DNA of 54,326 nt from Candidatus Tepidifontimicrobium thermophilum. Its GTDB lineage: Bacteria > Sysuimicrobiota > Sysuimicrobiia > Sysuimicrobiales > Sysuimicrobiaceae. The stretch covers positions 1-54,326 of the forward strand of contig JAVKHO010000019.1 in NCBI GenBank assembly GCA_031459915.1, given 5' to 3'. Both the position numbers and the translations under genes were made by a program. Below are positions 8,023 through 44,008 of this stretch, piece after piece. The stretch's first letter is position 1, and every line of letters begins with the position of its first letter. The notes under the pieces were generated by a model, which ran no database searches, was not told the origin of the DNA, and saw only the letters and a program-made list of their open reading frames with translations.

Positions 8023-8067
8023 ATCGGTTCCGTCCCCGACCCCGTCCCGTCCGGCGGCTCGTAGCAT
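8023..8067 (+). promoter_or_regulatory. Motif A site (ATCGGT-N6-CCCGAC) plus -10-like TAGCAT
   Basis: 18-bp site 8023-8040; TAGCAT starts at 8062, 39 nt after the site start. Confidence 0.55.
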
Positions 8068-8099
8068 GTCCTCTCAGAGACGGGACCGCGGGGTGCACG

Positions 8100-10664
8100 A
8101 TGAAGCTTACGCGACGGACGTTTCTGCGGACCTCTGTCGCCGCAAGCGGCAGCCTTCTGGCCGGGCGGCTGCTGTTCGGTGATCTGGAGACGCTCCGGGC
8201 AGCTCCGCGTGGCGTCCCCGGGGCCGTGGAGGAGTGGGTCCCGACCGCATGCTGGATCGGCAAACAGGACTGCGGGATGCTGGCGCGGCGCATCGACGGT
8301 CGCGTGGTGAAGCTGGTCGGCCACCCCGGCCACCCCCGCAACCGAGGGACGCTCTGCCCCAAGGGCGCAGCTCAGATCATGGCCCTCTACGACCCCAACC
8401 GGGTGAAGACGCCCCTGATCCGCACCAACGAGAAGGGAGTCCCCGGCCGGTGGCGGCAGGCCACCTGGGAGGAAGCCCTCACCTTGGTGGCGCAAAAAAT
8501 GCGGGAGGTTCGGGCCAAGGAGCCGAGCCTTCTTGTGTGGCAGAAGGGACGCAGCAAGGCCAAGGCCTTCTACGACGAGGCGTTCGTCAAGGCCACGGGT
8601 GCGACCAGGCTGCACCACGGGGCGTTCTGCTCGGACGCGGGGTACAGGGCAGGGGAGTACACCGTCGGGATCAGCGGCGTCCTGCATCCGGACTTCCGGC
8701 ACTGCCGCTACCTGCTGGCCTGGGGCTACAACCTCACCAACGCGGGGGGTAACCAGCTCTGCTGGATCACCTGGCCGCAGCAGCTCATCCAGGCAAGGGA
8801 GCGCGGGATGAAGGTAGTGGCCGTCGACCCGCGGCTGCGGGGAACGGCCCACTTCGCGGACGAGTGGCTGCCCATCCGGCCGGGCACGGACCTAGCGCTG
8901 GCGTTGGCCCTGTGCCACGAACTCATCGCCCTGGGAGCAGTAGACCGTGAGTACCTGGCCCGGTACACCAACGCGCCCTTTTTGGTCCAGGAGGACGGCT
9001 TTTTCCTCCGTCGCGAAGGCAAGGAGCAGGTGTGGGAGCTCCGGGCGGGTGGGCCGAGGCCTCATGACGCGGGGGACGCTTCGCCAGCCCTCGAAGGCAC
9101 CTTCGTGGCGGACGGGAAGCGTGTCAAGCCGGCCTTTCAGGTTCTGAAGGAGCACCTGGCCCGCTACACCCCCGAGTGGGCTTCCGAGGTGTGCGGGGTG
9201 CCCACGGAGCAGATCCGGCGGGTGGCCCGGGAGCTGGCGGAGAACGCCCGCATCGGGAGCACGGTGGTGGTGGATGGAGTCCGGATCCCATACCGGCCCG
9301 TGGCCATCATGGCCTACCACGTGAGCCAGCAGGAGCTGGGATTCCAAGCGGTCCGGGCCATGCTGCTGGTGGTGATGTTGCTGGGCGCGGTGGGAGCGGT
9401 TGGAGGTCAGCGGCTGGACGTCGGGCCGTGGAAGGTGCACGAGAACTTCGAGAAGCTGGAACACGTTGAGATCAAGGACCCTCCGTACAACGTGTGGCTG
9501 AAGGACTCCAAGTTCTTCCCCATCAACAGCAACAACTCCTCCATCGTCGCAAAGGTCATGCAGGATCCGCAAAAGTACGGGGTCAAGCAAATCCCCGAGA
9601 TGGTCATCGTGCACATGTCCAACCCCCTGGTGGCGTTTGCGTCCACTCCGGACCTGGAGGAGGCCTACCGGAAGTTCAAGTTCGTGGTGGTGATCGATCC
9701 CTGGCTGTCGCGGACCGCGGACCTATTTGCGGACGTGGTCCTGCCTGCCAGTACCCTGGAGAAGTACGAGGGCCCGCTGGCGGCCACGGACCAGTACGTG
9801 GACGCGGTGGCCCTGCGGGTGCCGGTGATGGAACCCCTGTTCCAGAGCCGGGGGGAGATCGAGATCTACCTGGACCTGTGCGAGAAGGCCGGGGTGCTCT
9901 ACGGGAAGGACGGCTACCTGGACCACCTGAACGAGGCCCTCAAGCTGAAGGAACCCTACCGGCTCCCGGTGGACCGGAAGCCCACGGTACGGGAGATCTT
10001 CGACCGCTGGGCCAAGTCGGAGGGGATTGCCGAAGGGGTGGCCTACTTCGAGAAGCACGGGGTGAAGATCAAGGGTGCGGTACCTGCCACCAAGTTCTAC
10101 GGGTACGCCACGGACCCGCCCTTCGGCGGGGTACGGCACCGGCTGTACGGGGAGGCGCTGCTCCGCTACCGGCTGGAGATGCGCGAGCGGGGAGTGCCGG
10201 AGATCTACTGGCGGGACTACACCCCGCTTCCTACCTGGCGGAAGCCCACCATGGAGGGCTCGCCACCGGAGTACGACCTGTACCTGGTGAGCTTCAAGCG
10301 GATCGAGCACAAGCAGTCGCGCTCCTCGCAGGTGCCGCTGCTGGCGGAGCTCGCCCGGCAGGCTTACGTGGAGATCAACCCCCGCACGGCGCGGGCGAAA
10401 GGGATCCGGGACGGGGAGCAGGTGTGGGTGGAGTCCCACAACGCGGTCACCGGGGAGACCCGTCGGGTGCGGGCGGTGGCACGCTACCGGGAAAGCATCC
10501 GCCCCGACACCGTCGCCATGCCCCACCACTTCGGGGGCGTCGCCCGACACCCGTGGGCCGACGGACAGGGGCCGTCCCCCAACTCCCTGTTCTTCACAGG
10601 AGAGGGCTACGTGGCCAACACCGCGGACCAGTCCTTCCACGTGAAGGTACGGGTTTACAAGTAG
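8100..10664 (+). CDS. Tat-exported molybdopterin oxidoreductase catalytic subunit, divergent ArrA/ArxA-like
   Basis: TRRTFLR Tat motif; C-X2-G-X3-C-X27-C FS0 motif; QKGRSK and HHGAFCSD at the positions of the Arr/Arx GR motif and Cys ligand; 854 aa. Confidence 0.75.
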   Translation: MKLTRRTFLRTSVAASGSLLAGRLLFGDLETLRAAPRGVPGAVEEWVPTACWIGKQDCGMLARRIDGRVVKLVGHPGHPRNRGTLCPKGAAQIMALYDPNRVKTPLIRTNEKGVPGRWRQATWEEALTLVAQKMREVRAKEPSLLVWQKGRSKAKAFYDEAFVKATGATRLHHGAFCSDAGYRAGEYTVGISGVLHPDFRHCRYLLAWGYNLTNAGGNQLCWITWPQQLIQARERGMKVVAVDPRLRGTAHFADEWLPIRPGTDLALALALCHELIALGAVDREYLARYTNAPFLVQEDGFFLRREGKEQVWELRAGGPRPHDAGDASPALEGTFVADGKRVKPAFQVLKEHLARYTPEWASEVCGVPTEQIRRVARELAENARIGSTVVVDGVRIPYRPVAIMAYHVSQQELGFQAVRAMLLVVMLLGAVGAVGGQRLDVGPWKVHENFEKLEHVEIKDPPYNVWLKDSKFFPINSNNSSIVAKVMQDPQKYGVKQIPEMVIVHMSNPLVAFASTPDLEEAYRKFKFVVVIDPWLSRTADLFADVVLPASTLEKYEGPLAATDQYVDAVALRVPVMEPLFQSRGEIEIYLDLCEKAGVLYGKDGYLDHLNEALKLKEPYRLPVDRKPTVREIFDRWAKSEGIAEGVAYFEKHGVKIKGAVPATKFYGYATDPPFGGVRHRLYGEALLRYRLEMRERGVPEIYWRDYTPLPTWRKPTMEGSPPEYDLYLVSFKRIEHKQSRSSQVPLLAELARQAYVEINPRTARAKGIRDGEQVWVESHNAVTGETRRVRAVARYRESIRPDTVAMPHHFGGVARHPWADGQGPSPNSLFFTGEGYVANTADQSFHVKVRVYK

Positions 10665-10673
10665 GAGGTCGGG

Positions 10674-11411
10674 ATGCCGCGCTACGCCATGGTGGTCGAC
10701 CTGGACCGGTGCATGGGGTGCCGCGCTTGCATGGAGGCCTGCAAGGTAGAGAACAACACCCCCACCGCGGCCTTCTGGATGTACGTGTTCCGGTTCGAGG
10801 AGGGCGAGTATCCCAACACGTACATCTGGTTCATGCCGCGGCCCTGCATGCACTGCGACAACCCGCCGTGCGCCAAGGTGTGCCCGGTGGGCGCGCGGTA
10901 CAAGCGGGAGGACGGGTTGGTGGCCACGGACTGGGACCGGTGCATCGGCTGCCGCTACTGCGAGGTGGCCTGCCCGTACGGAGTGAACTACTTCAACTGG
11001 AAGGAGCCGGTGCGGAACTACTACCTGGACTGGGGTGAGCGCGACGTGCGGCGGGTGACGAACGGGCAGACCCCGCCCTACCGGAATCCCGACCTGGATC
11101 GGCCGTACGGGGAGGAGAAGCGCCGGGTGGCGGGTGGGGGGCGGCTCAAGGGGGTGGTGGAGAAGTGCACCTTCTGCGTGCAGCGGGTGGAGGAGGGGCT
11201 GCAGCCCGCGTGCGTCGCAAACTGCCCCGCGTTCGCGCTGCACTTCGGGGACCTGGAGGACCCGCAGAGCAGTGTCTCCCAGGTGCTGGGCCGGAAGCAC
11301 TCCTGGCGCCTGCTGGAGGAGCTGGGGACCGAGCCCCGGGTGTACTACGTGGGCGCCCACCCGGCGCACCCCGAGAGCCGGCAGATCGAGGAAGTAAAAG
11401 CGAGGGTGTAG
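10674..11411 (+). CDS. 4x[4Fe-4S] subunit, ArrB/ArxB-like
   Basis: Four Cys clusters; no signal peptide; insertion with PPYRNPD between clusters 3 and 4 resembles ArrB/ArxB. Confidence 0.8.
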   Translation: MPRYAMVVDLDRCMGCRACMEACKVENNTPTAAFWMYVFRFEEGEYPNTYIWFMPRPCMHCDNPPCAKVCPVGARYKREDGLVATDWDRCIGCRYCEVACPYGVNYFNWKEPVRNYYLDWGERDVRRVTNGQTPPYRNPDLDRPYGEEKRRVAGGGRLKGVVEKCTFCVQRVEEGLQPACVANCPAFALHFGDLEDPQSSVSQVLGRKHSWRLLEELGTEPRVYYVGAHPAHPESRQIEEVKARV

Positions 11412-11413
11412 CC

Positions 11414-12901
11414 ATGAGCGTACAGGTCCAGCGACTGCCTTACGGAGTGGGCCGGTTCCAGGTGGGCTTCTGGCTGTTCATCCTGGTCCTTCTGAGCGTG
11501 GTGGGCTGGGGAATCTACGCGTACTCCCGCCAGCTCGTGGAGGGGCTGGTGGTGACAGGCCTACGGGACATCGGGACCATGGGCGGGGCCGCCTGGGGCC
11601 TGTACATCGCCTTCGATGTGTACTTCGTGGGCGTGAGCTTCGCGGGCATCACCATGGCGGCCCTGATCCGGCTGCTGCGCCTGGAGGAGCTCAGGCCGGT
11701 GTCGCGCATGGCCGAGCTGCTGACCATCGTGGCTTTGGTCCTGGCGGCCTTCAGCGTCCTGCCGGACCTGGGCCAGCCCGTGCGGGGCATCGTGAACCTG
11801 TTGCGGTACGCGCGGCCGCAGTCCCCCTTCTTCGGCACGTTCACCCTGGTGATCTCCGGCTACCTGTTCGCCAGTCTGGTCTACTTTTACCTGGACGGGC
11901 GCCGAGACGCCGCCCTGCTGGCGCGGATCCCGAGCCCCCTGCAGGGCTTCTACCGCCTGTGGGCTGCAGGCTACCGGGATACCCCGGCGGAGCGCGAGCG
12001 GCACCACCGCGCCGCCTTCTGGCTCGCCATCGCCATCGTGCCTTTGCTGGTGACCGCCCACTCCACCTTGGGGTTCGTGTTCGGGATCCAGTCGGGCCGG
12101 CCTGGCTGGTTCAGCACGCTGCAGGCCCCTGCTTTCGTGGTGATGGCTGGCGTGTCGGGGATCGGGCTGCTGCTGGTGATCGCCGCGGTGTTTCGGCACG
12201 TGCTAGGCGAGCGGGAACGGCTGCACGAGGCGATCTTCCGGTGGCTGGGGGGTCTGCTGGCGCTCCTGGTGCTCGTTTATCTCTACTTCACGGTGGCCGA
12301 GCTACTGACCACCACGTACACGGGTCACGAGACGGAGGTCCGGCTGACGCTGGCGCTGCTCACCGGACCGTACGCCTGGCTCTTCTGGGTCAGCATGGGG
12401 GCACTGGTGCTAGGCCTGGTGGCGCTGCTCCTGCCCTACGTACCCTCTGTGGTGCCCGTGCGCGTGCCCTCCTTCCGGCCGGCCTTCACGCGTGCAGCCG
12501 GTCTGGCGGCGGCGGGCGCGGGACTGCTGCTGATGATCCACCGCCACGGCCCCCGCCTGGCTCCCGCAGCCGGAGCCGGGCCCGAACCCGAATGGGTGGG
12601 GTGGGTGCTGGCAGGTCTGGCGGTGGTGTTCGTCCTGTCGTGGTTTCCTCTGTTTGCCCGGAGCGTGGTGGCCGCGGGCGTGGCGGGAGGTTTGCTGGTG
12701 AACGTGGCCGCGGTGGGCAAGCGGCTGCTCATCGTGGTGCCCTCGCAGACGCACGGGACGCTGCTGCCGTATGGCCCCGGGTCGTACACGCCCACCTGGG
12801 TGGAGTACAGCGTCGTGGCCGGCCTGTTCGCGCTCGGCACGCTGCTGTACACCCTGTTCGTGAAGGTGTTCCCCATCATGGAGGTTGCGGAGGAACAATG
12901 A
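11414..12901 (+). CDS. NrfD/PsrC-family quinol-interacting membrane subunit (ArxC-like), enlarged
   Basis: WGLYIAFDVYFVGVS, DLGQP, QSPF, HSTLG, YTPTWVE motifs. Confidence 0.85.
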   Translation: MSVQVQRLPYGVGRFQVGFWLFILVLLSVVGWGIYAYSRQLVEGLVVTGLRDIGTMGGAAWGLYIAFDVYFVGVSFAGITMAALIRLLRLEELRPVSRMAELLTIVALVLAAFSVLPDLGQPVRGIVNLLRYARPQSPFFGTFTLVISGYLFASLVYFYLDGRRDAALLARIPSPLQGFYRLWAAGYRDTPAERERHHRAAFWLAIAIVPLLVTAHSTLGFVFGIQSGRPGWFSTLQAPAFVVMAGVSGIGLLLVIAAVFRHVLGERERLHEAIFRWLGGLLALLVLVYLYFTVAELLTTTYTGHETEVRLTLALLTGPYAWLFWVSMGALVLGLVALLLPYVPSVVPVRVPSFRPAFTRAAGLAAAGAGLLLMIHRHGPRLAPAAGAGPEPEWVGWVLAGLAVVFVLSWFPLFARSVVAAGVAGGLLVNVAAVGKRLLIVVPSQTHGTLLPYGPGSYTPTWVEYSVVAGLFALGTLLYTLFVKVFPIMEVAEEQ

Positions 12902-13134
12902 TGCGGGCGGCGTGGACGCTGCTGTTGGTGGTGGCGGGTTTTGCCCTGCAGGCGGTGAGTTACTTCTTCCTAGCGGCGCCCCTGGGGGTGCCCACCGGCC
13001 CCGTGTACAGCAACCCGCGGGTACCCTTCGCCCCGGCCGTGTTCATCCTCGGGGTGATGCTGGTGTTCCTGGCCGCGGTGGTCTACGAGTTGCTGCCGGA
13101 GTCCGGCGGGCGGACGCATCGGGGAACGGGATGA
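12898..13134 (+). CDS. Small two-helix membrane protein, unknown function
   Basis: 78 aa with two hydrophobic helices around SNPRVPFAP; ATGA overlaps with both neighbours. Confidence 0.7.
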   Translation: MMRAAWTLLLVVAGFALQAVSYFFLAAPLGVPTGPVYSNPRVPFAPAVFILGVMLVFLAAVVYELLPESGGRTHRGTG

Positions 13135-13787
13135 AAGCCCTGGCGCAGCTGCGACAGGCCATCTACCGGCTACTGGCCGCGCTGTTCCTGTACCCTACGG
13201 AGGCTCGGCGCCGCGCCCTGGTGGAGGTCCCGCGGGTCCTCGAGCCGGAGCGGGTCCTGGCAGCTTTCCCCTTCTTCCTGCCGTGGGAGCGCCTGCTGCG
13301 CGCCCTCGCCGACCTGCCGGCTAGCACGGTCCTCCAGGAGGAATACGTGCGTCTGTTCACCCCGGGCTTTGACGGCTGCCGCTGTGCTCCCTACGAGTCC
13401 GCTTACCACTGCGGGCAGGGTGGGTCCGCGAGTTGGCTGTGTGCGGAGCTGGAACGGGAGTACGCCTTCGTGGGTCTGGCCCTGTCGAACGACCCGCACG
13501 AGCCTGCGGACCACCTGGCGGTGGAGCTCGAGTACATGGCCTTTCTGTGCGGGCGGGAGGCGGAGGCGTGGGAACGCGGGACCGCAGAAGCCCGGGAGCT
13601 CCTCGGACGGGAGCGGAACTTCCTGAACCGACACCTGGTCCGGTGGGTTCCGGAGTTCGCTCGGTCCCTGCAGGACCAGGAAGCCGCGGCGGTCTACCGG
13701 GCCGGTGCGGCGGCCTGCGAGGCGTTCGTGCTGCAGGACTTGGACCTGGTGTGCCTTTTCAGCCGGATCCAGGAGGCGCGTCGGTGA
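13131..13787 (+). CDS. TorD/DmsD-family molybdoenzyme chaperone
   Basis: EYVRLF, PYESAY, EPADHLAVELEYM, HLVRW motifs. Confidence 0.9.
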   Translation: MKALAQLRQAIYRLLAALFLYPTEARRRALVEVPRVLEPERVLAAFPFFLPWERLLRALADLPASTVLQEEYVRLFTPGFDGCRCAPYESAYHCGQGGSASWLCAELEREYAFVGLALSNDPHEPADHLAVELEYMAFLCGREAEAWERGTAEARELLGRERNFLNRHLVRWVPEFARSLQDQEAAAVYRAGAAACEAFVLQDLDLVCLFSRIQEARR

Positions 13788-15346
13788 CGGCGCAGCCAGC
13801 TGCAGTCTTGATATGCGCGGACGTGGCGCGGGCAAGCCGGGTGAACCTGACCGCGGTGGAGGCGTGGCTCCAGAGGACAGACCCCCACGCGGTCGTGCGG
13901 GTCGCCGCTGGCCTGTGCGAGGGGAGAGGGGACCTCGAGTCCGTCCTGGCGCGGGACGGCGCCGGGCGGGCGGTTCTGGGGCTCTGCGGGGACGGGTACG
14001 ACGAACGCGAGCTGCAGTCCCAGTTGCGGCAGGCGGGGATCGATCCGCTGAGCGCGAGTGCGGTACGGCTAGGGCGCTGGTGCGCGGGCCTGCCGCCGGA
14101 GGCCGCCACGGAAAAAGCGAAGGTGATGCTCGCGGCGGCGGTGGCCGCGGCCCGGGCGTCCGGGGGCAGCACCGTCGCCAACGCGAAGCCGTACTTCCCC
14201 GCCCGGGGAAGCCGCCGGTCCTTCCTGCGGTTCCCTGTGCCGGCCTACCGCGTGGTCCCCTCGGTGGACGGGAGTCGTTGTGCTGCGTCCGCCGGCTGCT
14301 CCCTGTGCGTGGAAGCGTGCCCGTTCGGGGCGCTGTCGGTAGCGGACGGGCGGATCGAGCTGGACAAGGACGGCTGCGAGGGTTGCGGGCGGTGCGTCAG
14401 CGCCTGTCCCCGGGAGGCCTTCCACTTCCCGGGGTACAACCCGAAGGAAGTGGAAGCCCGGGTGCGGGTTCTGCTGGACCCGGAGGTCAGCGCCATCCAG
14501 CCGAGGGGCATCCTGTTCGTGTGCGCCTGCGCGTCCCCACTGCCATTCCTGGAGGCCGGCTGGATGCCCGTGGAGCTTCCGTGCGCCGCTATGCTGCCCG
14601 CGCACTGGCTGCTGGCGCCCCTGCTGCTGGGTGCGGTAGCTGTTGGGGTTGTGCCGTGCGAGAGACAGGGCAGCACGGGCTGCGGGCCCGCCGTCCTCCA
14701 GAAGGTGGACTTCTGCCAGGCGTTGCTCCGGCGGGCGGGGAGGCCCGCGGAGCTGGTGCGCAGCCATCCGCCCGCAGAGCAACCGCCGGGGATGGAACTC
14801 CCCGAGCCCCTCCCGCGGGCGAACGGGGAGGTCAGGTTCCAGCTGCGCCCCGAGGCTGTGGCGGCGGTGCTGTTGCGCTTTGTAGGTCATGGGGGTACCT
14901 CCGCGTGGGAGCACCCCGGCTGCCCGCTGGGCCTGGTGGAGATCAACCCAGCTACGTGCACGGGCTGCGGGATGTGCGCGATCGCGTGTCCCTCGGAGGC
15001 TCTGCAGTACGGAGAGGCAGACGGCGAGGCGTGGGTGCGCTTTGACCCGGCGCGGTGCACCGCCTGCGGGCTGTGCGTGTCCAGGTGTCCGGAGCAGGCG
15101 CGGGGGGCCATTCACGTGAGCCGGCGCCTGGACCCCGAGTCCCTGCGGGCAGGGAGCGGGCAGCTCCTTCGGACACCCCTGAGGCGGTGTGTGGCCTGCG
15201 GCGCACCCGTGGCGCCCGCGCTCATGCTGAATCGGGTACTGGAGTTGCTAGGGGAGGACGGCATCCAGCTGCAGCGGGTCCTCACCCAGTACTGCCCGTC
15301 CTGCAGGCCGCTGTGGGGGGCCCGGGAGGAGGCTCGGCGTGGGTAG
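13784..15346 (+). CDS. Cys-rich polyferredoxin (HdrA-N-like + 4Fe-4S pairs + MvhD-like segment)
   Basis: CSLCVEACP, CEGCGRCVSACP, CTGCGMCAIACP, CTACGLCVSRCP, CVACG...CPSC; GTGA overlap with torD. Confidence 0.75.
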   Translation: MTAQPAAVLICADVARASRVNLTAVEAWLQRTDPHAVVRVAAGLCEGRGDLESVLARDGAGRAVLGLCGDGYDERELQSQLRQAGIDPLSASAVRLGRWCAGLPPEAATEKAKVMLAAAVAAARASGGSTVANAKPYFPARGSRRSFLRFPVPAYRVVPSVDGSRCAASAGCSLCVEACPFGALSVADGRIELDKDGCEGCGRCVSACPREAFHFPGYNPKEVEARVRVLLDPEVSAIQPRGILFVCACASPLPFLEAGWMPVELPCAAMLPAHWLLAPLLLGAVAVGVVPCERQGSTGCGPAVLQKVDFCQALLRRAGRPAELVRSHPPAEQPPGMELPEPLPRANGEVRFQLRPEAVAAVLLRFVGHGGTSAWEHPGCPLGLVEINPATCTGCGMCAIACPSEALQYGEADGEAWVRFDPARCTACGLCVSRCPEQARGAIHVSRRLDPESLRAGSGQLLRTPLRRCVACGAPVAPALMLNRVLELLGEDGIQLQRVLTQYCPSCRPLWGAREEARRG

Positions 15347-16090: not shown

Positions 16091-16750
16091 CTACCGGCGC
16101 TTCACCGGTGTGCGGAAGCGGAGGTGGAAAGGCTGCAGGCCGGCGGCGGCCAGGTGCTCGGCCAGGACCAGGGGCGGTACCTGGGTGGCGCAGACGTCCG
16201 CGCGTTTCACGACCCCGTCCAGGCGGACGGAGAGGACGAGCCCCCACCGGTCGGGCTGCAGGGAGCGGAGGGCCTGCACCAGCTTGGCCAGGTCCTCCAG
16301 ACCGCCCGGTAGGGCCACGGACAGCCGGACACCGTCCAGGTCGCCGCCCCGTAGGTACACCAGGGCGTCGAAGAGGTCACTCTCGGTGACGATTCCGACC
16401 AGCTGGTCCCGTTCGACCACCAGCAGGCAGCCGATCTTGTGTCTACGGAGCAGGGACGCGGCCTCCTCCACCGGGGCGTCCGGGGTGGTGGTGTGGAGGT
16501 CGCGCACCATGACGTCCGAAACCCGCAGCTGCTCCGGCAGCTCCACCCGCCGCGCGGCGCCGTCCCCGGCGGCTGGGGGAAGGGCGGCCCGCATGAGGTC
16601 GGTCCAGGTCACCAGCCCGACCAGTCTGGTCCCGCGTAGGACCGGCAGGTGGCGGATCCGCAAGGCCTTCATGCGCTCCAGCGCCTCCTGCAGGGACGCG
16701 GTGGGCGCGATCGTGGTCGGGTTGGCGGTCATCACGTCGCGTACCAGCAT
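16091..16750 (-). CDS. CBS-pair + ACT-like protein (AcuB-like)
   Basis: MLVRDVMT...IRHLPV...KIGCLLVV...GIVTESD; ATG at 16750 with AGGAG SD. Confidence 0.8.
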   Translation of the reverse strand: MLVRDVMTANPTTIAPTASLQEALERMKALRIRHLPVLRGTRLVGLVTWTDLMRAALPPAAGDGAARRVELPEQLRVSDVMVRDLHTTTPDAPVEEAASLLRRHKIGCLLVVERDQLVGIVTESDLFDALVYLRGGDLDGVRLSVALPGGLEDLAKLVQALRSLQPDRWGLVLSVRLDGVVKRADVCATQVPPLVLAEHLAAAGLQPFHLRFRTPVKRR

Positions 16751-16823: not shown

Positions 16824-16894
16824 AGTATGACCGCGCGGACCAACGGTCGGCATCGGTCCGCGCACCGATTTTCCGGATCGGGCGCGGACCCTAG
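16824..16894 (-). promoter_or_regulatory. Two motif A sites plus -10-like CATACT
   Basis: ATCGGT-CCGCGC-ACCGAT (16852-16869, perfect arms) and ATCGGG-CGCGGA-CCCTAG (16877-16894); CATACT on the minus strand starts at 16829, 40 nt from the site edge. Confidence 0.6.
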
Positions 16895-17183: not shown

Positions 17184-17290
17184 CCCCGCGCGGCAACGTA
17201 GCCCCGCGGGCGGGAGGGAAGCGATCAGGCCCGGGCGGGAAGGGAACGGGCAGACCCGATGACGGAGGTCCTACGGGGTGTAGCGACGGG

Positions 17291-18457
17291 TTAATCCGCT
17301 CCTGCGGGAAGCCGGGCCAGCACGGTGGTGCCGACCCCGGGCACGGAGAGGACCTGGACCGTGCCGCCCACCAGTTCCGCCCGCTCCCGCATGCCCGCCA
17401 GGCCGAGGGTCCGCCGGTCGGTCTCCTGCGGGTCGAAACCTACCCCGTCGTCCCGCACCATCACGAGGAGGGTTTCGGACCGACGGTCCAGGCGGACGTC
17501 CACGCGGCTGGCCCGGGCGTGTCGGAGGACGTTGGTCAGGGCCTCCTGGACGATCCGGAACGCTACCGTCTCCACGTCCGCCGGCAAGCGGGAGTCCAGC
17601 CCGGCGGTGTCCACGTGCACGTCCAGGCCGGCCGGCCGGACGTAGGCGTCCGCGTACCAGCGTACCGCCGGGCCCAACCCCAGATCGTCGAGGATGGACG
17701 GCCTGAGTTCGTGGACCAGCTTCCGCAGTTCGTCCAGCCCCTGCTGCGCGAGGTCGTGCAGGCGGCGCAGCTGCGGGGCCAGGGGGTTCCCCTCGGACTC
17801 CGCCTGGCCGGCCAGCTGGGCCAGTTGGATGATCAGGGCCGTCATCATCTGGCCCGCGTGGTCGTGCAGGTCTCGGGCGATCCGGCGGCGCTCCTCTTCC
17901 TGAGCCACCAGCAGGCGCTGGAGCAGCTGGCGGCGGACGTGCTCCTGTTCCCGCACTTGTTCGAACAGGCGCGCCCGCTGGATGGTCACTGCCAGCTCGT
18001 GCCCCACCGCCTCCAGCATGTCCAGCTCTTCGTCGCTGAAGGTGCGCCCCGGCGGCAGCATCAGGTTCAGGATGCCCACCGTCTCGTCCTGCGCCACCAG
18101 GGGGACCGAGGCATGACGGTGTCGTTCTGCCAGCTGCGGCAGGGCCTGCTCCAGGCGGGCGCACTGGATGACGTTGACAGGCTCCCGCAGGGTCCCTTCG
18201 CGGAGCATGCTGATGCAACGGCAGTCCCCGGCCATCCTGCGCTTGCCTGCGGCGGCAAGGGGGGCCGGGAGGTTGGCGTCAGCGGCTAAGTGGAACTCGC
18301 CGGGGTTGGGGCCGTGGAGGAAGATCCACCCCGCCTCCACGTCCATCAGCTCGCAGATCCGGCGGAGAGCCCCGTCGAGGGCCTCCCGGAGGGTGTACGA
18401 GCGGTTCAGGACCTCCGAGATGCTCCGGAAGATGGCCGTCTGTCGGGCCAGCTGCAA
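17291..18457 (-). CDS. Soluble GAF + HisKA_3 sensor histidine kinase (AirS/YhcY-like)
   Basis: EEERRRIARDLHD, ELRPSILDDLGL, QEALTNVLRHA, DDGVGF, GLAGMRER; GAF domain with C-R-C-X17-C; TTG at 18457 with GGGGAGG SD. Confidence 0.85.
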   Translation of the reverse strand: MQLARQTAIFRSISEVLNRSYTLREALDGALRRICELMDVEAGWIFLHGPNPGEFHLAADANLPAPLAAAGKRRMAGDCRCISMLREGTLREPVNVIQCARLEQALPQLAERHRHASVPLVAQDETVGILNLMLPPGRTFSDEELDMLEAVGHELAVTIQRARLFEQVREQEHVRRQLLQRLLVAQEEERRRIARDLHDHAGQMMTALIIQLAQLAGQAESEGNPLAPQLRRLHDLAQQGLDELRKLVHELRPSILDDLGLGPAVRWYADAYVRPAGLDVHVDTAGLDSRLPADVETVAFRIVQEALTNVLRHARASRVDVRLDRRSETLLVMVRDDGVGFDPQETDRRTLGLAGMRERAELVGGTVQVLSVPGVGTTVLARLPAGAD

Positions 18458-18562: not shown

Positions 18563-19285
18563 CTATCGGGGTACGTTCCTCCAGGGGTCTCCCGGCCAGG
18601 TTTCCATCCGCGCCTGCCGGTCGTCGAACCGGTAGGTGAGCTGGCTTTCCACGCGGACCACGCCGTCGATGGTAGCAACCCAGCGCTCCGCCAGCTCCTT
18701 GTCGGACCGGCGCTCCACCTCACCCTCCAGGGTGACCACCCCGTCCTGGACCTGGATGCGGAGACCCGAGGGGTCGATCCACAGCTCCTCCAGGAGCGCG
18801 CGGCGTACCGCTTCCTTAATTTCGTCGTCGGCGCGCACCAGGGCCCGCAGGACGTCCGCCCGGCTGACGATCCCCACCACCTGGTCCCCCCGCACCACGG
18901 GGACCCGGTTGACCTGCCGGCGCGCCATCAGAGCCGCCACTTCCCGTAGGGGCGTCTCTTCGGTCACAGTAACGACCGGGGAGCTCATCACGTCCCGGGC
19001 CACCAGCCCCTCGGCCTTCCGCTCGGCCTCCGCCAGCTGGCCCCTGCGGAACAAGCGTAGCAGCCCGGGTTCCTCCACCTCAGGTCGCTCCTTGTAAAGG
19101 AGGTCCGCCTCCGTGACGATCCCTACCAGCTTCCCCTCCGGGGAGACCACAGGCACTCCGCTGATGTGGTGGGTCAGGAGGAGCTGAGCGATCTCTTTCA
19201 CCGGAGTGTCAGGAGCCACGGTGATGACCGGTGTGGTCATCACGTCGCGTGCCAGCAGCCGGACTCGCGTGGGCGCGGTTGCCAT
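18563..19285 (-). CDS. CBS-pair + BON domain protein
   Basis: ARDVMT, ISGVPVV, GIVTEADLL; C-terminal GVVTLEG...GVVRVESQL BON signature. Confidence 0.85.
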   Translation of the reverse strand: MATAPTRVRLLARDVMTTPVITVAPDTPVKEIAQLLLTHHISGVPVVSPEGKLVGIVTEADLLYKERPEVEEPGLLRLFRRGQLAEAERKAEGLVARDVMSSPVVTVTEETPLREVAALMARRQVNRVPVVRGDQVVGIVSRADVLRALVRADDEIKEAVRRALLEELWIDPSGLRIQVQDGVVTLEGEVERRSDKELAERWVATIDGVVRVESQLTYRFDDRQARMETWPGDPWRNVPR

Positions 19286-19370
19286 GCTCCACCTCCCCGT
19301 GCGATCACCAAGGTCTTAGCCGTGAGGTTCTCTACGGCTCCGGCGGGGACCTGCCGGAGGCGTAGACAGG

Positions 19371-19838
19371 CTAGACCGCCTCCGCGCGGGCCGCCCGGGC
19401 GGCCCGCGGGGGGACCACCACCACCGGCACGGGCGACCGACGCAGCACGCCCTCCGCCACGCTGCCCAGCAGCACCCGCTGCAGCCCGGTCCGGCCGTGG
19501 GTCCCCATCACGATGAGGTCAGCGCCGAAGCGCTCCGCGGCGTCCACGACAGCCTGTGCTACGGGCCCGTCGGGCACCACCTCCACCCGGAACCGGTGGG
19601 GAAGCTCCTCCAGCTGCGCCAGGCGGCTGCGGATCTGCATCCGCAGGTTCTCCAGGACCTGGTCCAGGTACAGACTCGGAGCCTCCCGCTGCAGCTCCTC
19701 GAACCCCGCCACGTCGTAGACGTGGAAGAAGATGAGCTCAGCGCCGTAGGACCGCGCCAGCTCCGCTGCCGTAGCGCACGTGGCTTCGGTCGTCTCACCC
19801 AGGTCCACCGCCACGAGGATCCGCTCGACCTTGGACAT
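19371..19838 (-). CDS. Universal stress protein
   Basis: RILVAVD; DLIVMGTHGRTGLQRVLLGSVAE motif. Confidence 0.92.
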   Translation of the reverse strand: MSKVERILVAVDLGETTEATCATAAELARSYGAELIFFHVYDVAGFEELQREAPSLYLDQVLENLRMQIRSRLAQLEELPHRFRVEVVPDGPVAQAVVDAAERFGADLIVMGTHGRTGLQRVLLGSVAEGVLRRSPVPVVVVPPRAARAARAEAV

Positions 19839-19872: not shown

Positions 19873-20016
19873 AGGGTAGCCCGGGCGGAGGCACGCTGGC
19901 CATCCGGGCCGCGTCCGATGGTCCTGCCCCGTGTTCCTCCGACCTGCGCCGGACCCGGCGGGGCTGAAAAATCCGGCGTCCGCCGGATGGCTGCGGAGTG
20001 GGGCCCGCCCTAGCGT
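19873..20016. promoter_or_regulatory. Divergent usp / rrf2-nos promoters, each with a motif A site
   Basis: ATCCGG-GCCGCG-TCCGAT (19902-19919) with minus-strand TACCCT at 41 nt; ATCCGG-CGTCCG-CCGGAT (19971-19988) with TAGCGT at 20011 (40 nt). Confidence 0.6.
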
Positions 20017-20020: not shown

Positions 20021-20039
20021 ACGGACCCGACGGGTCCGT
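20021..20039. promoter_or_regulatory. 9-1-9 palindrome ACGGACCCG-A-CGGGTCCGT, candidate Rrf2 operator (motif B)
   Basis: Perfect inverted repeat just downstream of a -10-like hexamer and upstream of rrf2. Confidence 0.6.
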
Positions 20040-20089: not shown

Positions 20090-20569
20090 ATGCGGTTCAC
20101 CCGGGAAGCAGAGTACGCCCTGCGGGCGCTAGCCTACCTCGCCTCCGTACCGTCCGGGCAGGTCCGGCCCGCCAACCAGGTAGCCGACGCGTGCGGGCTT
20201 CCGGGCCCGTTCCTCAGCAAGACGTTGCGCAAGCTGGCCCGCAGCGGCCTGCTGCGCTCCGCCCGGGGCCGCAGCCGCGGTTACGGGCTGGCCCGGAGCC
20301 CGGGGGAGATCAGCGTTCGGGAGATCCTGGAGGCGGTGGAGGGTGCCGACGCCTTCCGCCGGTGCGTGTTCTGGGACGCGGGCTGCTCCGAGGACCACCC
20401 GTGCGTCCTGCACCCCGCCTGGGCAGGGGTCCGGGCTAGCCTCCTCGCCAACCTGGAGCGCATGACCCTCGAGGATGTCAGGGCCGCGTGGTGGGCCAGA
20501 GACCCCCCCGTGGGGTGGGGCGAGCTCGCTGGTCGGAAAATCCAGAGGACGAAGGGAGGTGGACCATGA
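20090..20569 (+). CDS. Rrf2-family Fe-S transcriptional regulator
   Basis: EYALRAL, winged-helix GYGLARSP, C-X6-C-X5-C-X2-H cluster ligands. Confidence 0.9.
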   Translation: MRFTREAEYALRALAYLASVPSGQVRPANQVADACGLPGPFLSKTLRKLARSGLLRSARGRSRGYGLARSPGEISVREILEAVEGADAFRRCVFWDAGCSEDHPCVLHPAWAGVRASLLANLERMTLEDVRAAWWARDPPVGWGELAGRKIQRTKGGGP

Positions 20570-22539
20570 GGTGGAGTCGGCTTGCGTCGCTGGTGGTAGT
20601 GATGCTGGCGCTGGTGCTGGCAGGAGCTTTGGCGGGGCAGGCGCAGCGCAGCACTACGCTGCCCCAGGACGTCCAGAGCCTCATCGAGGCGAAGGGGCTC
20701 ACGCCGGACCAGGTCCGGGCAGCCATCCAGACGTACGTGCCGCCCGGCAAGTACGACGAGTACCTGATGTTCTCGTCCGGAGGCCAGGGCGGCCAGGTGC
20801 TGGTGTTCGGCGTCCCGTCCATGCGCCTGCTCCGGGTGATCGGGGTGTTCGCGCCTGAGCCCTGGCAGGGCTACGGCGTGGGCTCCGAGGAGACGGAGAC
20901 CATCCTGAACTGGCGGACCAAGGACCCGCGCCTGGCTTGGGGGGACACCCACCACCCGGCCCTCAGCGAGACCAACGGGGAGTACGACGGCAAGTGGCTG
21001 TTCATCAACGACAAGGCGGGAAGCCGCATCGCGGTCATCGACCTTCGGGACTTCGCCACGAAGCAGATCGTGCAGAACCCCAACGCGGTCAGCAACCACG
21101 GCGCCGTGGTGAGCCCCAACACGGAGTACGTGCTGGAGGTGACCCAGTACGCGGGTCCCTTCCCCTTCCGGTACGTGCCCCTGACGCAGGAGAACTACAA
21201 CCGGCACTTCCGGGGCCTGGCGACCTTCTGGAAGTTTGACCGGGGCAAGGGGCGCATCGACGTGAGCAAATCCTTCCAGATCGAGCTGCCGCCCTACTGG
21301 CAGGACCTGGCGGACTTCGGAAAGCTGGAGAGCTACGGCTGGGCCTTCTGGAACTCCTTCAACAGCGAGCGGGCCATCGGGGGCACCCTGGAGAAGAAGC
21401 CGCCCGTGGAGGTCGGCGCCAGTGCCCGGGACATGGACTACCTCCACATCGTGAACTGGAAGCGGGCCGAGGAGCTCGTGGCCCAGGGGAAGTACACCGT
21501 GATCAACGGGATGAAGGTGATCCGCCTGAAGGACGCCGTGGAGGCGGGGATTCTGTACCTGGCGCCGGAGCCCAAGAGCCCCCACGGCCTGGACGTGGCC
21601 CCGCGGGGCGACTACATCGTGGTGGGCGGGAAGCTGGACCCGAACGCCACCGTGTACAGCTTCCGCAAGATCCAGGAGGCCATCCGCAGCAAGGCCTTCA
21701 GCGGCCGGGACGACTACGGGATCCCCATCCTGAAGTTCGACGCGGTGGTGGCCGCCCAGGTGAAGCTCGGACTCGGGCCGCTGCACACCATGTTCGACGA
21801 CAAGGGCAACGCGTACACGAGCCTGTTCCTGGACAGCGCAGTGGCCAAGTGGACTCTGGGACCGCCGTACAACCCGCCGGAGCGCGCGTGGAAGCTGGTG
21901 CAGAAGCTGCCGGTGCAGTACAACATCGGACACCTGACCGCGGTGGAAGGCGACACCACGAAGCCCGGCGGGAAGTACCTGGTCGCCCTGAACAAGTGGT
22001 CCGTGGACCAGTACCGGAACGTGGGTCCCCTGCTGCCGCAGAACTTCCAGCTCGTGGACATCAGCGGCGAGGAGATGAAGCTGCTGAGCAACACGCCCGT
22101 CGGGATCGGGGAACCGCACCTGGCGCAGATCGTCCGAATGGACCGGGTGAAGAGCTGGGAGGTCTACCCGGCCGGCACCAACCCGCTCACGATGCGGCCG
22201 GACCCCAACGCGGTGAAGGCCGGGCAGCAGCGGATCGTACGGGAGGGGCGGACGGTGCGCGTGTACATGACCGCCATGCGGAGCCACTACGTCCCGGACC
22301 GCGTCCGGGTGAAGCGGGGCGACACGGTGATCTTCCACATCACCAACATCGAGCGAACCAAGGACGCGATCCACGGGTTCGCCATCGACCGGCACAACGT
22401 GAACCTGAGCCTGGAGCCTGGGAAGACGGAGACGGTGGTGCTCCGGGCGGAGCGGCCGGGCGTGTACCCATTCTACTGCACGGAGTTCTGCTCGGCGCTG
22501 CACCTGGAGATGATGGGCTACCTGGAGATCGAACCGTAG
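20566..22539 (+). CDS. nosZ: Sec-dependent (clade II) nitrous oxide reductase
   Basis: Sec-type signal with no RR motif; CuZ His motifs DTHH, NHG, PHG, GPLH, IGH, EPH; CuA motif CTEFCSALHLEM. Confidence 0.96.
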   Translation: MRWSRLASLVVVMLALVLAGALAGQAQRSTTLPQDVQSLIEAKGLTPDQVRAAIQTYVPPGKYDEYLMFSSGGQGGQVLVFGVPSMRLLRVIGVFAPEPWQGYGVGSEETETILNWRTKDPRLAWGDTHHPALSETNGEYDGKWLFINDKAGSRIAVIDLRDFATKQIVQNPNAVSNHGAVVSPNTEYVLEVTQYAGPFPFRYVPLTQENYNRHFRGLATFWKFDRGKGRIDVSKSFQIELPPYWQDLADFGKLESYGWAFWNSFNSERAIGGTLEKKPPVEVGASARDMDYLHIVNWKRAEELVAQGKYTVINGMKVIRLKDAVEAGILYLAPEPKSPHGLDVAPRGDYIVVGGKLDPNATVYSFRKIQEAIRSKAFSGRDDYGIPILKFDAVVAAQVKLGLGPLHTMFDDKGNAYTSLFLDSAVAKWTLGPPYNPPERAWKLVQKLPVQYNIGHLTAVEGDTTKPGGKYLVALNKWSVDQYRNVGPLLPQNFQLVDISGEEMKLLSNTPVGIGEPHLAQIVRMDRVKSWEVYPAGTNPLTMRPDPNAVKAGQQRIVREGRTVRVYMTAMRSHYVPDRVRVKRGDTVIFHITNIERTKDAIHGFAIDRHNVNLSLEPGKTETVVLRAERPGVYPFYCTEFCSALHLEMMGYLEIEP

Positions 22540-22543
22540 GGAA

Positions 22544-22584
22544 GGCGGGGGGGGCGGGCACCGCCCGCCTCCCCGCCGAGTTTT
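22544..22584 (+). terminator. GC-rich hairpin with short U tract between nosZ and nosB
   Basis: GGCGGGGGGGGCGGGC-ACC-GCCCGCCTCCCCGCC followed by GAGTTTT. Confidence 0.55.
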
Positions 22585-22598
22585 GAGGAGGTGCGGAA

Positions 22599-26234: not shown

Positions 26235-26611
26235 GGTGGTTCTGGCTGGCCGCGGTCCTGCTCCTGGCTGCCTGCGGGCAGCGGGCGTCTGCGAAGGTGG
26301 AGGGAGACGGGTGGGTCGCGACTCTTGAGTGGACCCCTCAACCCCTGAAAGCTCTCCGGCCCGCGCAGCTCGTCCTGCGCGTCCACGACCGGTCAGGCCG
26401 GCCCTTGATCCTGGGGGGGCTAGAGGCGCGGGCGGACATGCCCGAGATGTCCCACGAGCCGGACCCTGTACGTTTTCGGAGGAGCTCAGAGGGGACCTAC
26501 GAGGCGAGCCACAATTTCTCCATGGACGGCTTGTGGAGGATCCGGGTGACGGGCCGGTGGGACGGCGGGACTCTGGAGGCGACGTTCCACGTTACCGTAG
26601 GCGGTCCGTAA
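26231..26611 (+). CDS. YtkA/FixH-like lipoprotein (Met/His copper-binding candidate)
   Basis: Lipobox LAAC; DMPEMSH and FSMDGLW motifs; TTGA overlap with nosY. Confidence 0.75.
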   Translation: MRWFWLAAVLLLAACGQRASAKVEGDGWVATLEWTPQPLKALRPAQLVLRVHDRSGRPLILGGLEARADMPEMSHEPDPVRFRRSSEGTYEASHNFSMDGLWRIRVTGRWDGGTLEATFHVTVGGP

Positions 26612-26638
26612 CCCGCGTGCCGGTTCGGGGGTGCGGCC

Positions 26639-28918: not shown

Positions 28919-28997
28919 GGCACCTTCCCGCGAGCGGTGAGTTGCGTGGCGCTGCCAGCATACACCCGGCCGGCCAAGCAGTCCAGACTGACCGCGG

Positions 28998-29699
28998 TCA
29001 GCGGATCCAGGAGAACGGGTCGCCGGTACTCGCCGGGCGGCGGTCGTCGAACCGGTACACGAGCTGGCTGCGTACCCCCACCACGCCGTCGATGCCGGCG
29101 ACCCAGCGTTCCACCAGCTCCTTGTCGGACCAGCGGTCCACCGAGCCCTCGAGGTACACCACCCCGCCCTCCACCCGGACCTGCACGGTGGCAGGGTCGA
29201 TCCACAGCTCACGGAGGAGCGCCTCACGCACCGCCCGCTCCAGCTCCGAGTCCTCCCGGGCCAGCGCCTTGATCACGTCCGCCCGGCTGACGATGCCGAC
29301 CACCTGCCCGCCGCGGACCACGGGCAGCCGGTTCACCCGGTGTCGGGCCATAAGCCGCGCGGCCTCCCGGAGGGGCGTGTCCTCCTCCGCGGTGATGACC
29401 GGCCAGGTCATCAGGTCCCTGGCCACGACACCTTCCCTCTTCCGCAACCCCTGGGGGTCAGGCCGGAACCACCAGCCGCCCTTTTCCTCGGGCAGCTCCT
29501 TGTACAGGAGGTCCGCTTCCGTCAGGATGCCCACCAGCTCCCCGGACTCCGAAACCACAGGCACGCCGCTGATCCGGTGGCGGAGCAGCACTTCCGCGAC
29601 CTCTTTTACGGGAGTGTCTTCCTTCACAGTCACCACGGGGCTGGTCATCACGTCCCGGACCCGCAACCGACCCACGGCTCGCTCCTGCACACCAACCAT
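28998..29699 (-). CDS. CBS-pair + BON domain protein (paralog of 18563..19285)
   Basis: Same architecture and long shared peptides. Confidence 0.85.
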   Translation of the reverse strand: MVGVQERAVGRLRVRDVMTSPVVTVKEDTPVKEVAEVLLRHRISGVPVVSESGELVGILTEADLLYKELPEEKGGWWFRPDPQGLRKREGVVARDLMTWPVITAEEDTPLREAARLMARHRVNRLPVVRGGQVVGIVSRADVIKALAREDSELERAVREALLRELWIDPATVQVRVEGGVVYLEGSVDRWSDKELVERWVAGIDGVVGVRSQLVYRFDDRRPASTGDPFSWIR

Positions 29700-29724
29700 G
29701 GCTTTCCTCCTTCCTCCCACCGTC

Positions 29725-29849
29725 AGGCTACGTGAGAGGAGCTCCGCCCACCATCGGGCCGCGGCCGGAAATCAGGATCGGGCCGCGGCTGGATGGGTCG
29801 GGGCAGTGACCCGAAGTATGCTGGTCCCGGACGGACCCGAGGGGTCCAC
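29725..29849. promoter_or_regulatory. Divergent promoter with two motif A sites and one motif B site
   Basis: ATCGGGCCGCGG direct repeat at 29753 and 29777; TAGCCT (minus, 29730) and TATGCT (plus, 29817) each 40 nt from a site; ACGGACCCGAGGGGTCCAC at 29831. Confidence 0.6.
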
Positions 29850-29866
29850 GGAGGGGAGGGAGGACG

Positions 29867-30244
29867 GTGGAAGCGCGGGACATCATGAGCAAGGACGTGA
29901 TCGTGCTGACGCCGGACATGGACGTGCAGGAAGCCGCCGACCTTCTGGTGCGCTACCGGATCCACGGGGCACCCGTGGTGGACGCCAACGGGATGCTGGT
30001 GGGGATGGTGAGCCTGGTGGACCTGGTGGGGAAGGCAGGCGGCACGGTGCGCGAGATCATGACGCCTGACCCCGTGGTGGCGATGGAGGACACACCGGTG
30101 GAGGAGCTGGCGCAGCTGATGCTGGACGAGATGGTGCGGCGGGTGCCCATCGTGCGGGGCGGCCAGGTGGTGGGGATCGTGAGCGCCAGCGACGTCGTGC
30201 GGGTGTACCTGGACGAGGTGCGGGGCCGGCGGACGGCCGGGTAG
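29867..30244 (+). CDS. Stand-alone CBS-pair protein
   Basis: ARDIMS, IHGAPVVD, VRRVPIV, GIVSASD. Confidence 0.88.
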   Translation: MEARDIMSKDVIVLTPDMDVQEAADLLVRYRIHGAPVVDANGMLVGMVSLVDLVGKAGGTVREIMTPDPVVAMEDTPVEELAQLMLDEMVRRVPIVRGGQVVGIVSASDVVRVYLDEVRGRRTAG

Positions 30245-36593: not shown

Positions 36594-37310
36594 GTGGGTG
36601 TCGGCCTGCTGCAGCGGTGCGTGCTGTTCGAAGGCCTTCCCCGGGAGGCCCTGGAGGAGGCGCAGGGAGAGGGCCGACGCGTGGTCCGGGTGCGGGGCGA
36701 GTGTTTCTTCCAGCAGGGGGAGCCCGCGCGGCACGCCTACGTTCTTCTGTCCGGGCGGGTCAAGCTGCAGGCGGTGCACCCGGACGGCCGGGTGGTCATC
36801 CACCGCACCGCGGGCCCCGGTGAGGTGTTCGGCGGGCTCGCGCTGCTGGGGGAGCAGACCTACCCGGTGTCCGCGGAGGCGTGGGAGGTGTGCGAGGCGC
36901 TGGCGTGGACGGGCGAGCAGCTGCGCCAGATGGCGCTGCAGCACCCGCAACTGGCCCTGAACCTGCTGCGGATGGCGGCTGAGCGCGTGCGGGACCTGCA
37001 GGCGCGGGTGGAGGAGCTGGTGGCCGACCGGGTCGAGCGGCGGATCGCGCGGGCGGTACTCCGCCTGGTCCGGCAGGCGGGCCGGCGGACGGCGGAGGGC
37101 GTGCTCATCGACCTGCCGCTGTCGCGGGAGGACCTGGCGAACCTCACGGGCACCACCCTGTTCACCGTGAGCCGGGTGTTGAGCCGGTGGGAGGAGCGGG
37201 GGATCGTGGCCGCGGGCCGGCAGCGCCTGGTGGTGCGGGTGCCCCACGCCTTCGCGGAGATCGCGGAGGACCTCGAGCAGCCCCCGAACCCCTCGGCGCG
37301 GCCGGGGTGA
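36594..37310 (+). CDS. Crp/Fnr family regulator (DNR/NnrR/HcpR-like)
   Basis: FFQQGEP, GRVKL, GEVFG, VERRIA, HTH GTTLFTVSRVL; no FNR N-terminal Cys cluster. Confidence 0.9.
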   Translation: MGVGLLQRCVLFEGLPREALEEAQGEGRRVVRVRGECFFQQGEPARHAYVLLSGRVKLQAVHPDGRVVIHRTAGPGEVFGGLALLGEQTYPVSAEAWEVCEALAWTGEQLRQMALQHPQLALNLLRMAAERVRDLQARVEELVADRVERRIARAVLRLVRQAGRRTAEGVLIDLPLSREDLANLTGTTLFTVSRVLSRWEERGIVAAGRQRLVVRVPHAFAEIAEDLEQPPNPSARPG

Positions 37311-43951: not shown

Positions 43952-43956
43952 AGCAG

Positions 43957-44008
43957 ATCGGGTGCGCGCCCGACCTGCCGAACCCGCGGAATCGGGTGTG
44001 CGCCCGAT
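43957..44008. promoter_or_regulatory. Two motif A sites upstream of the oxidase operon
   Basis: ATCGGG-TGCGCG-CCCGAC and ATCGGG-TGTGCG-CCCGAT, 34 nt apart. Confidence 0.6.

Follow-up and report, generated by a model that had tools for sequence, protein, structure and literature searches.

What is the function of an 18-bp palindrome, ATCSGG-N6-CCSGAT, which recurs upstream of respiratory and dormancy-type genes on contig JAVKHO010000019.1 of the uncultured hot-spring bacterium Candidatus Tepidifontimicrobium thermophilum (phylum Sysuimicrobiota), and which protein reads it? The window analysed here is this complete contig (C11) of 54,326 nt, belonging to a genome of 2.6 Mb with 71% GC and 96% completeness. 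The palindrome, hereafter called the box, is a real and conserved element of the activator type and no chance repeat, and its regulon is genome-wide. Comparison with related genomes suggests that the box is most likely the operator of a NarL/FixJ-family response regulator. We consider it likely that this regulator, together with a GAF-domain kinase encoded in the window, uses the box as a class II operator in a low-oxygen switch.

Gene calling relied on a codon model of our own making, so the intergenic limits are approximate; annotation was by Pfam and NCBIfam. G000 denotes the window's own genome, other G-numbers (G001, G002, G010, G035 and so on) its relatives, and L-numbers loci of the relatives.

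Copies of the box and their promoters

The initial annotation had listed nine copies of the box, all of which were found where it placed them. They are given below together with the hexamers that follow them, a weak site and two additional candidates.

2487..2504, plus strand: additional candidate box of the Ttr-like operon, 13.0 bits; TAACCT 24 nt on
8000..8017, plus strand: additional tandem box beside 8023, missed earlier, 11.9 bits
8023..8040, plus strand: box of the molybdenum (Mo)-enzyme operon; -10 hexamer TAGCAT at 8062, 21 nt on
16852..16869, minus strand: proximal box of a CBS gene; -10 hexamer CATACT at 16829, 22 nt on; arms kept in 5 relatives
16877..16894, minus strand: distal tandem box of the same CBS gene, 25 nt start to start
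17224..17241, minus strand: weak site ahead of an 87-aa open reading frame (ORF), 3.1 bits; 23 nt before TACGTT
19902..19919, minus strand: box of the USP - CBS/BON - kinase operon; -10 hexamer TACCCT at 19878, 23 nt on
19971..19988, plus strand: box of the Rrf2-nos operon; -10 hexamer TAGCGT at 20011, 22 nt on; arms kept in 5 relatives
29753..29770, minus strand: box of the CBS/BON and BON genes; -10 hexamer TAGCCT at 29730, 22 nt on
29777..29794, plus strand: box of the CBS gene at 29867; -10 hexamer TATGCT at 29817, 22 nt on
43957..43974, plus strand: distal cox box
43991..44008, plus strand: proximal cox box, perfect consensus; conserved TGn-T(G/C)ACYT 22-23 nt on

Three copies had been credited with perfect arms. 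This holds for inverted repeats, because the arms of the copy at 16852 (ATCGGT/ACCGAT) are self-complementary, whereas the exact pattern matches only two copies (19971 and 43991). From the sites of G035, a relative from another family, the consensus could be refined to ATCGGGY-N4-RCCCGAT, followed 22 nt downstream by a -10 hexamer TAnnnT; it is only partly independent, since the window matrix had served to select the G035 sites in the first place.

Whether the motif is equally frequent in coding or randomised DNA had been proposed as a check, and the counts speak for the box. With at most one mismatch, 6 sites are present in 3,747 intergenic positions of the window and none in its 50,562 coding positions; the rest of the genome contains 9 in 191,651 intergenic and 34 in 2,348,606 coding positions. 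A matrix made from the nine sites shows a 17-fold intergenic enrichment at 14 bits outside the window (7 versus 5 matches). The matrix derived from G035 finds 9 sites of at least 12 bits in 3,679 intergenic nt of the window, where a second-order Markov null gives a mean of 0.035 and a maximum of 2 in 1000 runs. In G035 itself, 31 sites were counted in 180 kb, where five Markov controls gave 0-4, and ATCSG-N8-CSGAT occurs 26 times in the G035 island against at most 2 for other spacers. This island of about 160 kb (G035:C1:668000-830000) holds most boxes of that genome and has a kinase-regulator pair at its end. Strict boxes number 6 in our 2.6-Mb genome, 26 in G035 (3.2 Mb, 97% complete), and 2 and 3 in two Mycobacterium genomes of 6.7-6.8 Mb. 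Across the phylum, the box followed by N21-23 and TAnnnT is present in 74 of 94 Sysuimicrobiota (CSP1-3) genomes, a tally which counts our own genome and, as a non-match, one unpublished genome, while the control gave a single match. The reversed-pattern control is weak since it contains TAG, and spacer and Markov controls were added.

These counts bear on the explanation that GC-rich DNA produces the copies by chance or as a repeat without regulatory role, to which we give practically no credence. The loose pattern with two mismatches yields 24 matches in the window where 10.7 are expected, so that half of such matches are noise, and over our whole genome ATCSG-N8-CSGAT (14 occurrences) is no more frequent than the same arms with other spacers (2-17). 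However, the intergenic enrichment, the spacing to the -10 hexamer, the phylum-wide tally, the conserved arms and the scarcity of boxes in Mycobacterium all contradict it, and footprint and spacing rule it out.

The geometry of the promoters is that of a class II activator, in line with what had been proposed. All six -10 hexamers named in the initial annotation are in place, 21-23 nt past the box, and TACGTT is likewise present at the weak site, although the site itself scores poorly; homologues of the 87-aa ORF in G035 come after strong boxes. A TAnnnT hexamer at 21-24 nt accompanies 10 of 24 own sites, 19 of 31 sites in G035 and 63 of 121 sites at other loci, while control windows give at most 2, 2 and 7, respectively. 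The distribution peaks at a spacer of 22 nt, and among 70 oriented promoters with this spacer neither TTGACA nor any -35 consensus is seen. In these promoters purines, for which no selection was made, also peak about 8 nt past the hexamer, reaching 89% at one position. Taken together, the spacer peak and the purine peak place the box at about -52 to -35, with its centre at -43.5 to -44.5 of the predicted starts. E. coli NarL is described to activate yeaR from -43.5, and its dimers at yeaR and ogt to be centred at -43.5 or -44.5 (PMC10853779). The footprint is also kept in related genomes, where the arms are retained in orthologous promoters while spacers and flanks drift. The two cox copies lack TAnnnT at 21-23 nt, as had been noticed earlier; both are kept in 7 of 7 other same-family loci and are absent from the single other-family locus.

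Genes of the window and candidate targets of the box

The main genes and one further element of the window are as follows.

21..2258, plus strand: 2-oxoacid:ferredoxin oxidoreductase (por) operon, cut by the contig end
2571..7929, plus strand: tetrathionate-reductase-like (Ttr-like) operon, below cut-off
8100..15346, plus strand: Mo enzyme (Tat-type), iron-sulfur (Fe-S) subunit, NrfD anchor, chaperone and ferredoxin-like protein
16091..16750, minus strand: CBS-domain gene
17291..18457, minus strand: GAF-HisKA_3-HATPase kinase with C-x-C-x17-C, the proposed sensor
18563..19838, minus strand: USP (19371-19838) and CBS-BON (18563-19285) genes, upstream of the kinase
20021..20039, no strand: second palindrome ACGGACCCG-A-CGGGTCCGT over the predicted nos start, a candidate repressor operator
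20090..28450, plus strand: Rrf2, clade II (Sec) nosZ, nosD and ABC genes, then nrdJ
28439..30244, both strands: divergent BON, CBS-BON and CBS genes
36594..37310, plus strand: Crp/Fnr protein with helix TLFTVSR; candidate site TTGCG-N4-GTCAA at 35628-35641
44070..47451, plus strand: heme-copper oxidase subunits II, I (YSHPAVY), IV and III

The target set of anaerobic respiration plus USP, CBS and BON genes stood up to the analysis, while the idea of an island-wide regulon did not, as boxes are spread over genome and phylum. In relatives, a response regulator and a box are present just upstream of por. In the Rrf2-nos-nrdJ region TIGR04246 and TIGR02504 are over cut-off, and nrdJ, lying 112 bp on after the ABC genes, is probably co-transcribed with the operon. 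The Mo enzyme (8100-10664) had been called Arr/Arx-like; it reaches no curated cut-off, and among solved structures a thiosulfate/polysulfide reductase (2vpw, E 4e-45) is its best relative, ahead of ArrA (E 6e-31). Its Fe-S motif, CWIGKQDC, is unusual, and HGAFCSD is present at the Mo ligand. The label of a variant oxidase for the cox product was not supported either, as its subunit I carries YSHPAVY, which we take to be the motif of an ordinary A2-type oxidase.

Outside the window, boxes precede a cupredoxin plus NirK-like gene, a Nar-like type II Mo enzyme, a type III-like sqr, a second heme-copper oxidase (C4-type), SCO/PCuAC chaperones and a UbiD cluster. Further boxed genes are hydroxybenzoyl-CoA-reductase-like genes, upstream of benzoyl-CoA-reductase-like genes, glutamate dehydrogenase, and a gene pair of USP and a protein which we read as DoxX-like. 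The names of these outside targets are mostly best matches below curated cut-offs. No box was found at the FGHPEVY oxidase on contig C20, where the best site has 5.1 bits.

Some box promoters contain additional palindromes. CGGACCCG-N-CGGGTCCG lies just past the -10 hexamer at the Rrf2-nos, CBS (29831-29849) and NirK-like promoters, with a weaker version at the Nar-like promoter, and is partly conserved; its copies outside the window, at the NirK-like and Nar-like promoters, are those at G000:C1:50291 and upstream of G000:C22:17511. The Rrf2 protein is a candidate for its binder. A third palindrome, GTTGACCT-N-AGGTCAAC, is located at 44030-44046 and kept in the cox promoters of the family; the cox promoter is unlike the others and may be co-activated or repressed. 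TGAC-n-GGTCA stretches resembling this third palindrome flank the box of the C4-type oxidase. Upstream of the sqr box, a conserved palindrome of the type ATACCCTAC-N-GTAGGGTA (L161-L166, L171) is a candidate sulfide-responsive repressor site.

A few other features of the window were observed. The 87-aa ORF (16911-17174, minus strand) belongs to a family of helical proteins of 83-123 aa, starting near (P)EHR, without a Pfam family and with only a sub-threshold match (0.76) in the ESM Atlas. Further copies are present at G000:C3:7255, at G000:C10:26816 and twice in G035, and 4 of 5 follow a box or weak box. The por-ttr intergenic region with the start of ttrB (2251-2780) is nearly identical to L040:14461-14990 of G010, a member of another genus, while POR alpha of G010 is only 79% identical to that of the window, which is suggestive of recent transfer or bin mixing; Rfam gave no match for this stretch. 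A gene with a weak LuxR-type helix-turn-helix (47456-48169) lies within the cox operon, ahead of a radical SAM protein. Just after this cox-radical SAM operon is a tRNA gene (49284-49356, minus strand), and tRNA was the only Rfam match in the window.

The candidate regulator and a proposed sensor kinase

Among the proteins that could read the box, the most likely is a NarL/FixJ-family response regulator with the recognition helix KTVQTHR, orthologous to L021:7809-8462. A NarL/LuxR-type activator with an unrecognised box had been postulated before, and this is supported by the geometry and by the linkage of the regulator in relatives. There, a protein with a receiver plus a GerE helix-turn-helix domain and a HisKA_3 kinase partner is present; the NarL-type gene stands next to the orthologue of the kinase in 8 of 19 loci shown and is divergent from por in 6 of the 8 same-family loci holding it. 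A box lies within 330 bp upstream of 17 of 25 stand-alone regulator copies and of none of the four KTVETHR paralogues, whose clades are set apart in a quick tree (with long-branch warnings). In the regulator's own promoter, the hexamer is 24-26 nt from the box (four loci, counted by eye). At least three composite hits (box plus -10 hexamer) occur in 38 of 47 genomes with the regulator (median 6) and in 1 of 11 genomes without it (median 0); this count covers genomes at least 90% complete, with G000 and G023 dropped, and related genomes are not independent. A cluster-representative search with the regulator led to unnamed NarL-type proteins.

Our own assembly contains eight GerE-type matches and two HisKA_3 kinases; the window's kinase has no partner beside it. 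As the regulator gene is missing from the assembly, its presence in the genome is presumed. The window starts inside porD. In G002, the nearest relative, whose POR is 97-98% identical, the regulator begins some 800 bp to the left of the point corresponding to base 1 of the window, a box lies in the interval, and the fragment found there comprises the first 59 regulator codons, 97% identical to the L021 protein. Contigs of two sequencing runs overhang base 1 by 2,874 and 1,928 bases, and run X7 may be the source. It is therefore most likely that the gene falls into an assembly gap, some 0.8-1.5 kb to the left of base 1. Contigs of run X2 cover the targets and are informative on neither start sites nor levels, and the single raw RNA run, X21, yielded 16 reads and no signal of transcription starts.

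A different transcription factor, encoded outside the island, might bind the box and count the NarL-type regulator merely among its targets, which we regard as distinctly improbable. Such a factor would account for the boxes of G001, which has no detectable regulator, for the genus g7, which has the regulator with almost no boxes, and for a similar box-plus-10 pattern before unrelated genes in other metagenome contigs, where a scan of 80 of 120 stretches found lineage-like targets mixed with unrelated genes. However, among the genome's other regulators that were compared, the orphan NarL-type protein on C13 was found in 7 of 41 genomes, the box-rich G035, G036 and G031 not being among them, and the regulator on C10 has a kinase of its own; both the geometry and the boxes in its own promoter fit the NarL-type regulator. 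The C13 orphan (G000:C13:23897-24535) has Glu at the phospho-acceptor position and is located ahead of polysaccharide genes.

The Crp/Fnr protein of the window was also considered, since its gene sits in the island and the box can be read in the CRP frame as TCSGG-N6-CCSGA, with an N6 spacing resembling that of CRP sites. We hold this to be very improbable. The protein was not found in 25 of 41 genomes, including the box-rich G035, G036, G033 and G009; 5 of 9 Crp/Fnr loci have a TTG-N8-CAA site before a divergent operon and 0 of 9 a box within 170 bp upstream; and other Crp-family proteins are equally present in box-rich and box-poor genomes. It was rejected as the binder, as it does not co-occur with the box and has a candidate site of its own. 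In the window, TTGCG-N4-GTCAA lies ahead of a hemerythrin / DUF59 / Mrp / DUF2249 operon (32816-37310), a separate unit that is probably responsive to nitric oxide (NO). Rex was not found.

The proposed partner of the NarL-type regulator is the window's kinase, which appears to be cytoplasmic, as no membrane segment is evident in its sequence. It has one GAF domain with three invariant cysteines and no tandem GAFs, and C-x-C-x17-C is conserved in 118 of 121 proteins; in the ESM Atlas, the GAF domain matched generic GAF clusters only. AirS is described to bind [2Fe-2S] via C-x7-C-x-C-x17-C, and the same review calls it an anoxic regulator (PMC4601167). Because C-x-C-x17-C matches part of this motif, the window's kinase probably carries an Fe-S cluster on its three conserved cysteines. 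Genes such as nosZ, por, nrdJ and the hydroxybenzoyl-CoA-reductase-like genes are typical of anoxia, so the gene content of the targets favours low oxygen as the signal.

Alternatively, the same regulator and box could serve a redox or sulfur-stress regulon, with the kinase sensing sulfide, NO or the oxidation of its cluster. Only three cysteines are conserved in the kinase, and in B. licheniformis NreB a three-cysteine [2Fe-2S] cluster is reported to sense sulfide and turn on sqr (PMC13478379); sqr is boxed in our genome. One review gives oxidised AirS as the active form (PMC8774646), and two oxidases carry boxes. However, the sensor of B. licheniformis NreB is a PAS domain with CX2CX11C and not a GAF domain with C-x-C-x17-C (PMC13478379), and the anoxic character of the targets named above is also at variance with this alternative, which we consider rather unlikely.

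Several observations, in addition to the loose-pattern and whole-genome spacer counts given above, weigh against the low-oxygen kinase-regulator pair. The regulator orthologue is not in this assembly (best match 41% identity). A regulator with the same helix is accompanied by at most one composite match in 7 of 47 near-complete genomes; five of them belong to genus g7, in which the regulator stands beside a longer kinase paralogue in the three examined. G001 (94% complete, 95-97% identical at shared genes) shows no orthologue of either regulator or kinase and retains intact boxes at sqr and the C4-type oxidase. It is also without por, nosZ, CBS-BON, the window's cox and the Crp/Fnr gene, that is, the whole content of the window, as would be expected if the island had been left out of the bin or lost recently. 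nosZ is missing from each of five box-poor genomes, and such absence of targets means that gene loss confounds the co-occurrence of regulator and box. Neither of the box-bearing oxidase promoters (cox and C4-type) has TAnnnT at 22 nt. Finally, the first AirS cysteine is absent from the window's kinase, and the two reviews differ on whether AirS is active in the presence or the absence of oxygen (PMC8774646, PMC4601167).

A proposed low-oxygen switch and its relation to known systems

Considering all this, we propose that the cytoplasmic GAF kinase would autophosphorylate at low oxygen and pass the phosphate to the NarL/FixJ-family regulator. A dimer of the regulator would sit on the box, which spans about -52 to -35 in place of a -35 consensus, and recruit sigma70 polymerase as a class II activator. 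This would induce N-oxide and sulfur-compound respiration, POR, nrdJ, oxygen-sensitive aromatic reductases and the USP, CBS and BON proteins, and as the kinase operon is among the putative targets, a positive feedback may result. At the nos, nirK-like and Nar-like promoters, a repressor probably acts as well, through the second palindrome over the start.

The box is a conserved activator-type box of a probable low-oxygen regulon across most of the phylum. With somewhat more doubt than belief, we extend this to the suggestion that most of the Sysuimicrobiota switch from aerobic to anaerobic life through one three-cysteine Fe-S GAF kinase and a NarL-type activator in the role of FNR, and that a second operator acts as a gate at the promoters of nosZ and of the Nar-like and nirK-like genes. 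Facultative anaerobiosis and an abundance of nosZ and nirK have been described for the phylum; in the accessible text of the same two sources (PMC11604079, PMC11962464) the term 'two-component' was not found. The box was not described in the literature searched, which covered few subscription papers and lay outside RegPrecise. NarL-type class II activation is already known, while the combination of sensor, regulator and box, and its breadth, appear to be new. If true, the anoxic programme, including the reduction of nitrous oxide (N2O), could be read from the DNA of each uncultured member, predicting when these organisms consume N2O. The analysis would thus name a candidate master redox switch, with its box and targets, in an uncultured phylum, and a thermophilic AirS-type sensor whose targets predict polarity, a point disputed for AirS.

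The system had initially been called DosR-like, which is appropriate for gene content and logic and not for box and sensor. Like DosRST of M. tuberculosis and OsdKR of Streptomyces coelicolor, it combines a NarL-family activator with a GAF/HisKA_3 kinase, has USP, CBS and nitrate-reductase targets and a sensor operon under its own box, and the arm ATCGGG resembles TTSGGG. In contrast, the DosR box TTSGGGACTWWAGTCCCSAA (PMC2275270) and the OsdR box AGGGCCGATCGGCCCT (PMC5069765) are both GGG-N8-CCC as given in these sources, compared with GGG-N6-CCC here, and tandem heme GAFs are replaced by a single Cys-GAF. Of the 20 positions of the DosR consensus, 11-14 are mismatched in our boxes, and no DosR-like site with at most 4 mismatches is present in the genome. 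The GAF domains of DosS and DosT match the window's kinase weakly (E 0.09-0.5), over a C-terminal strand.

AirSR (YhcSR) of S. aureus likewise has a cytoplasmic kinase with an N-terminal cysteine cluster, and the last three AirS cysteines are matched, going by the description of the motif; apart from the missing first cysteine, the difference lies in the respiratory and dormancy-type character of the targets in our system. With E. coli NarL at yeaR and ogt our system shares the position of a dimer at -43.5/-44.5 beside the -35 element, with some tandem sites (PMC10853779). NarL differs in its AT-rich 7-2-7 box, which is a GC-rich 7-4-7 box here, and in its periplasmic nitrate sensor, while the sensor here is cytoplasmic.

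NreBC of staphylococci shares the arrangement of an Fe-S kinase and a NarL-type activator, with the difference that NreB has a four-cysteine PAS domain in place of the GAF, and no NreA was seen here. NreC is described to bind a GC-rich palindrome at nar, nir and narT in anoxia (PMC8139620, PMC4601167); its operator was compared by description only, the letters being given only as a picture in PMC9918477 Fig. S11. The box may be close to the NreC operator. The latter presumably has similar GGG arms, and we take the helix of our regulator to be NreC-like. The system thus works like DosR and NreBC and belongs to neither.

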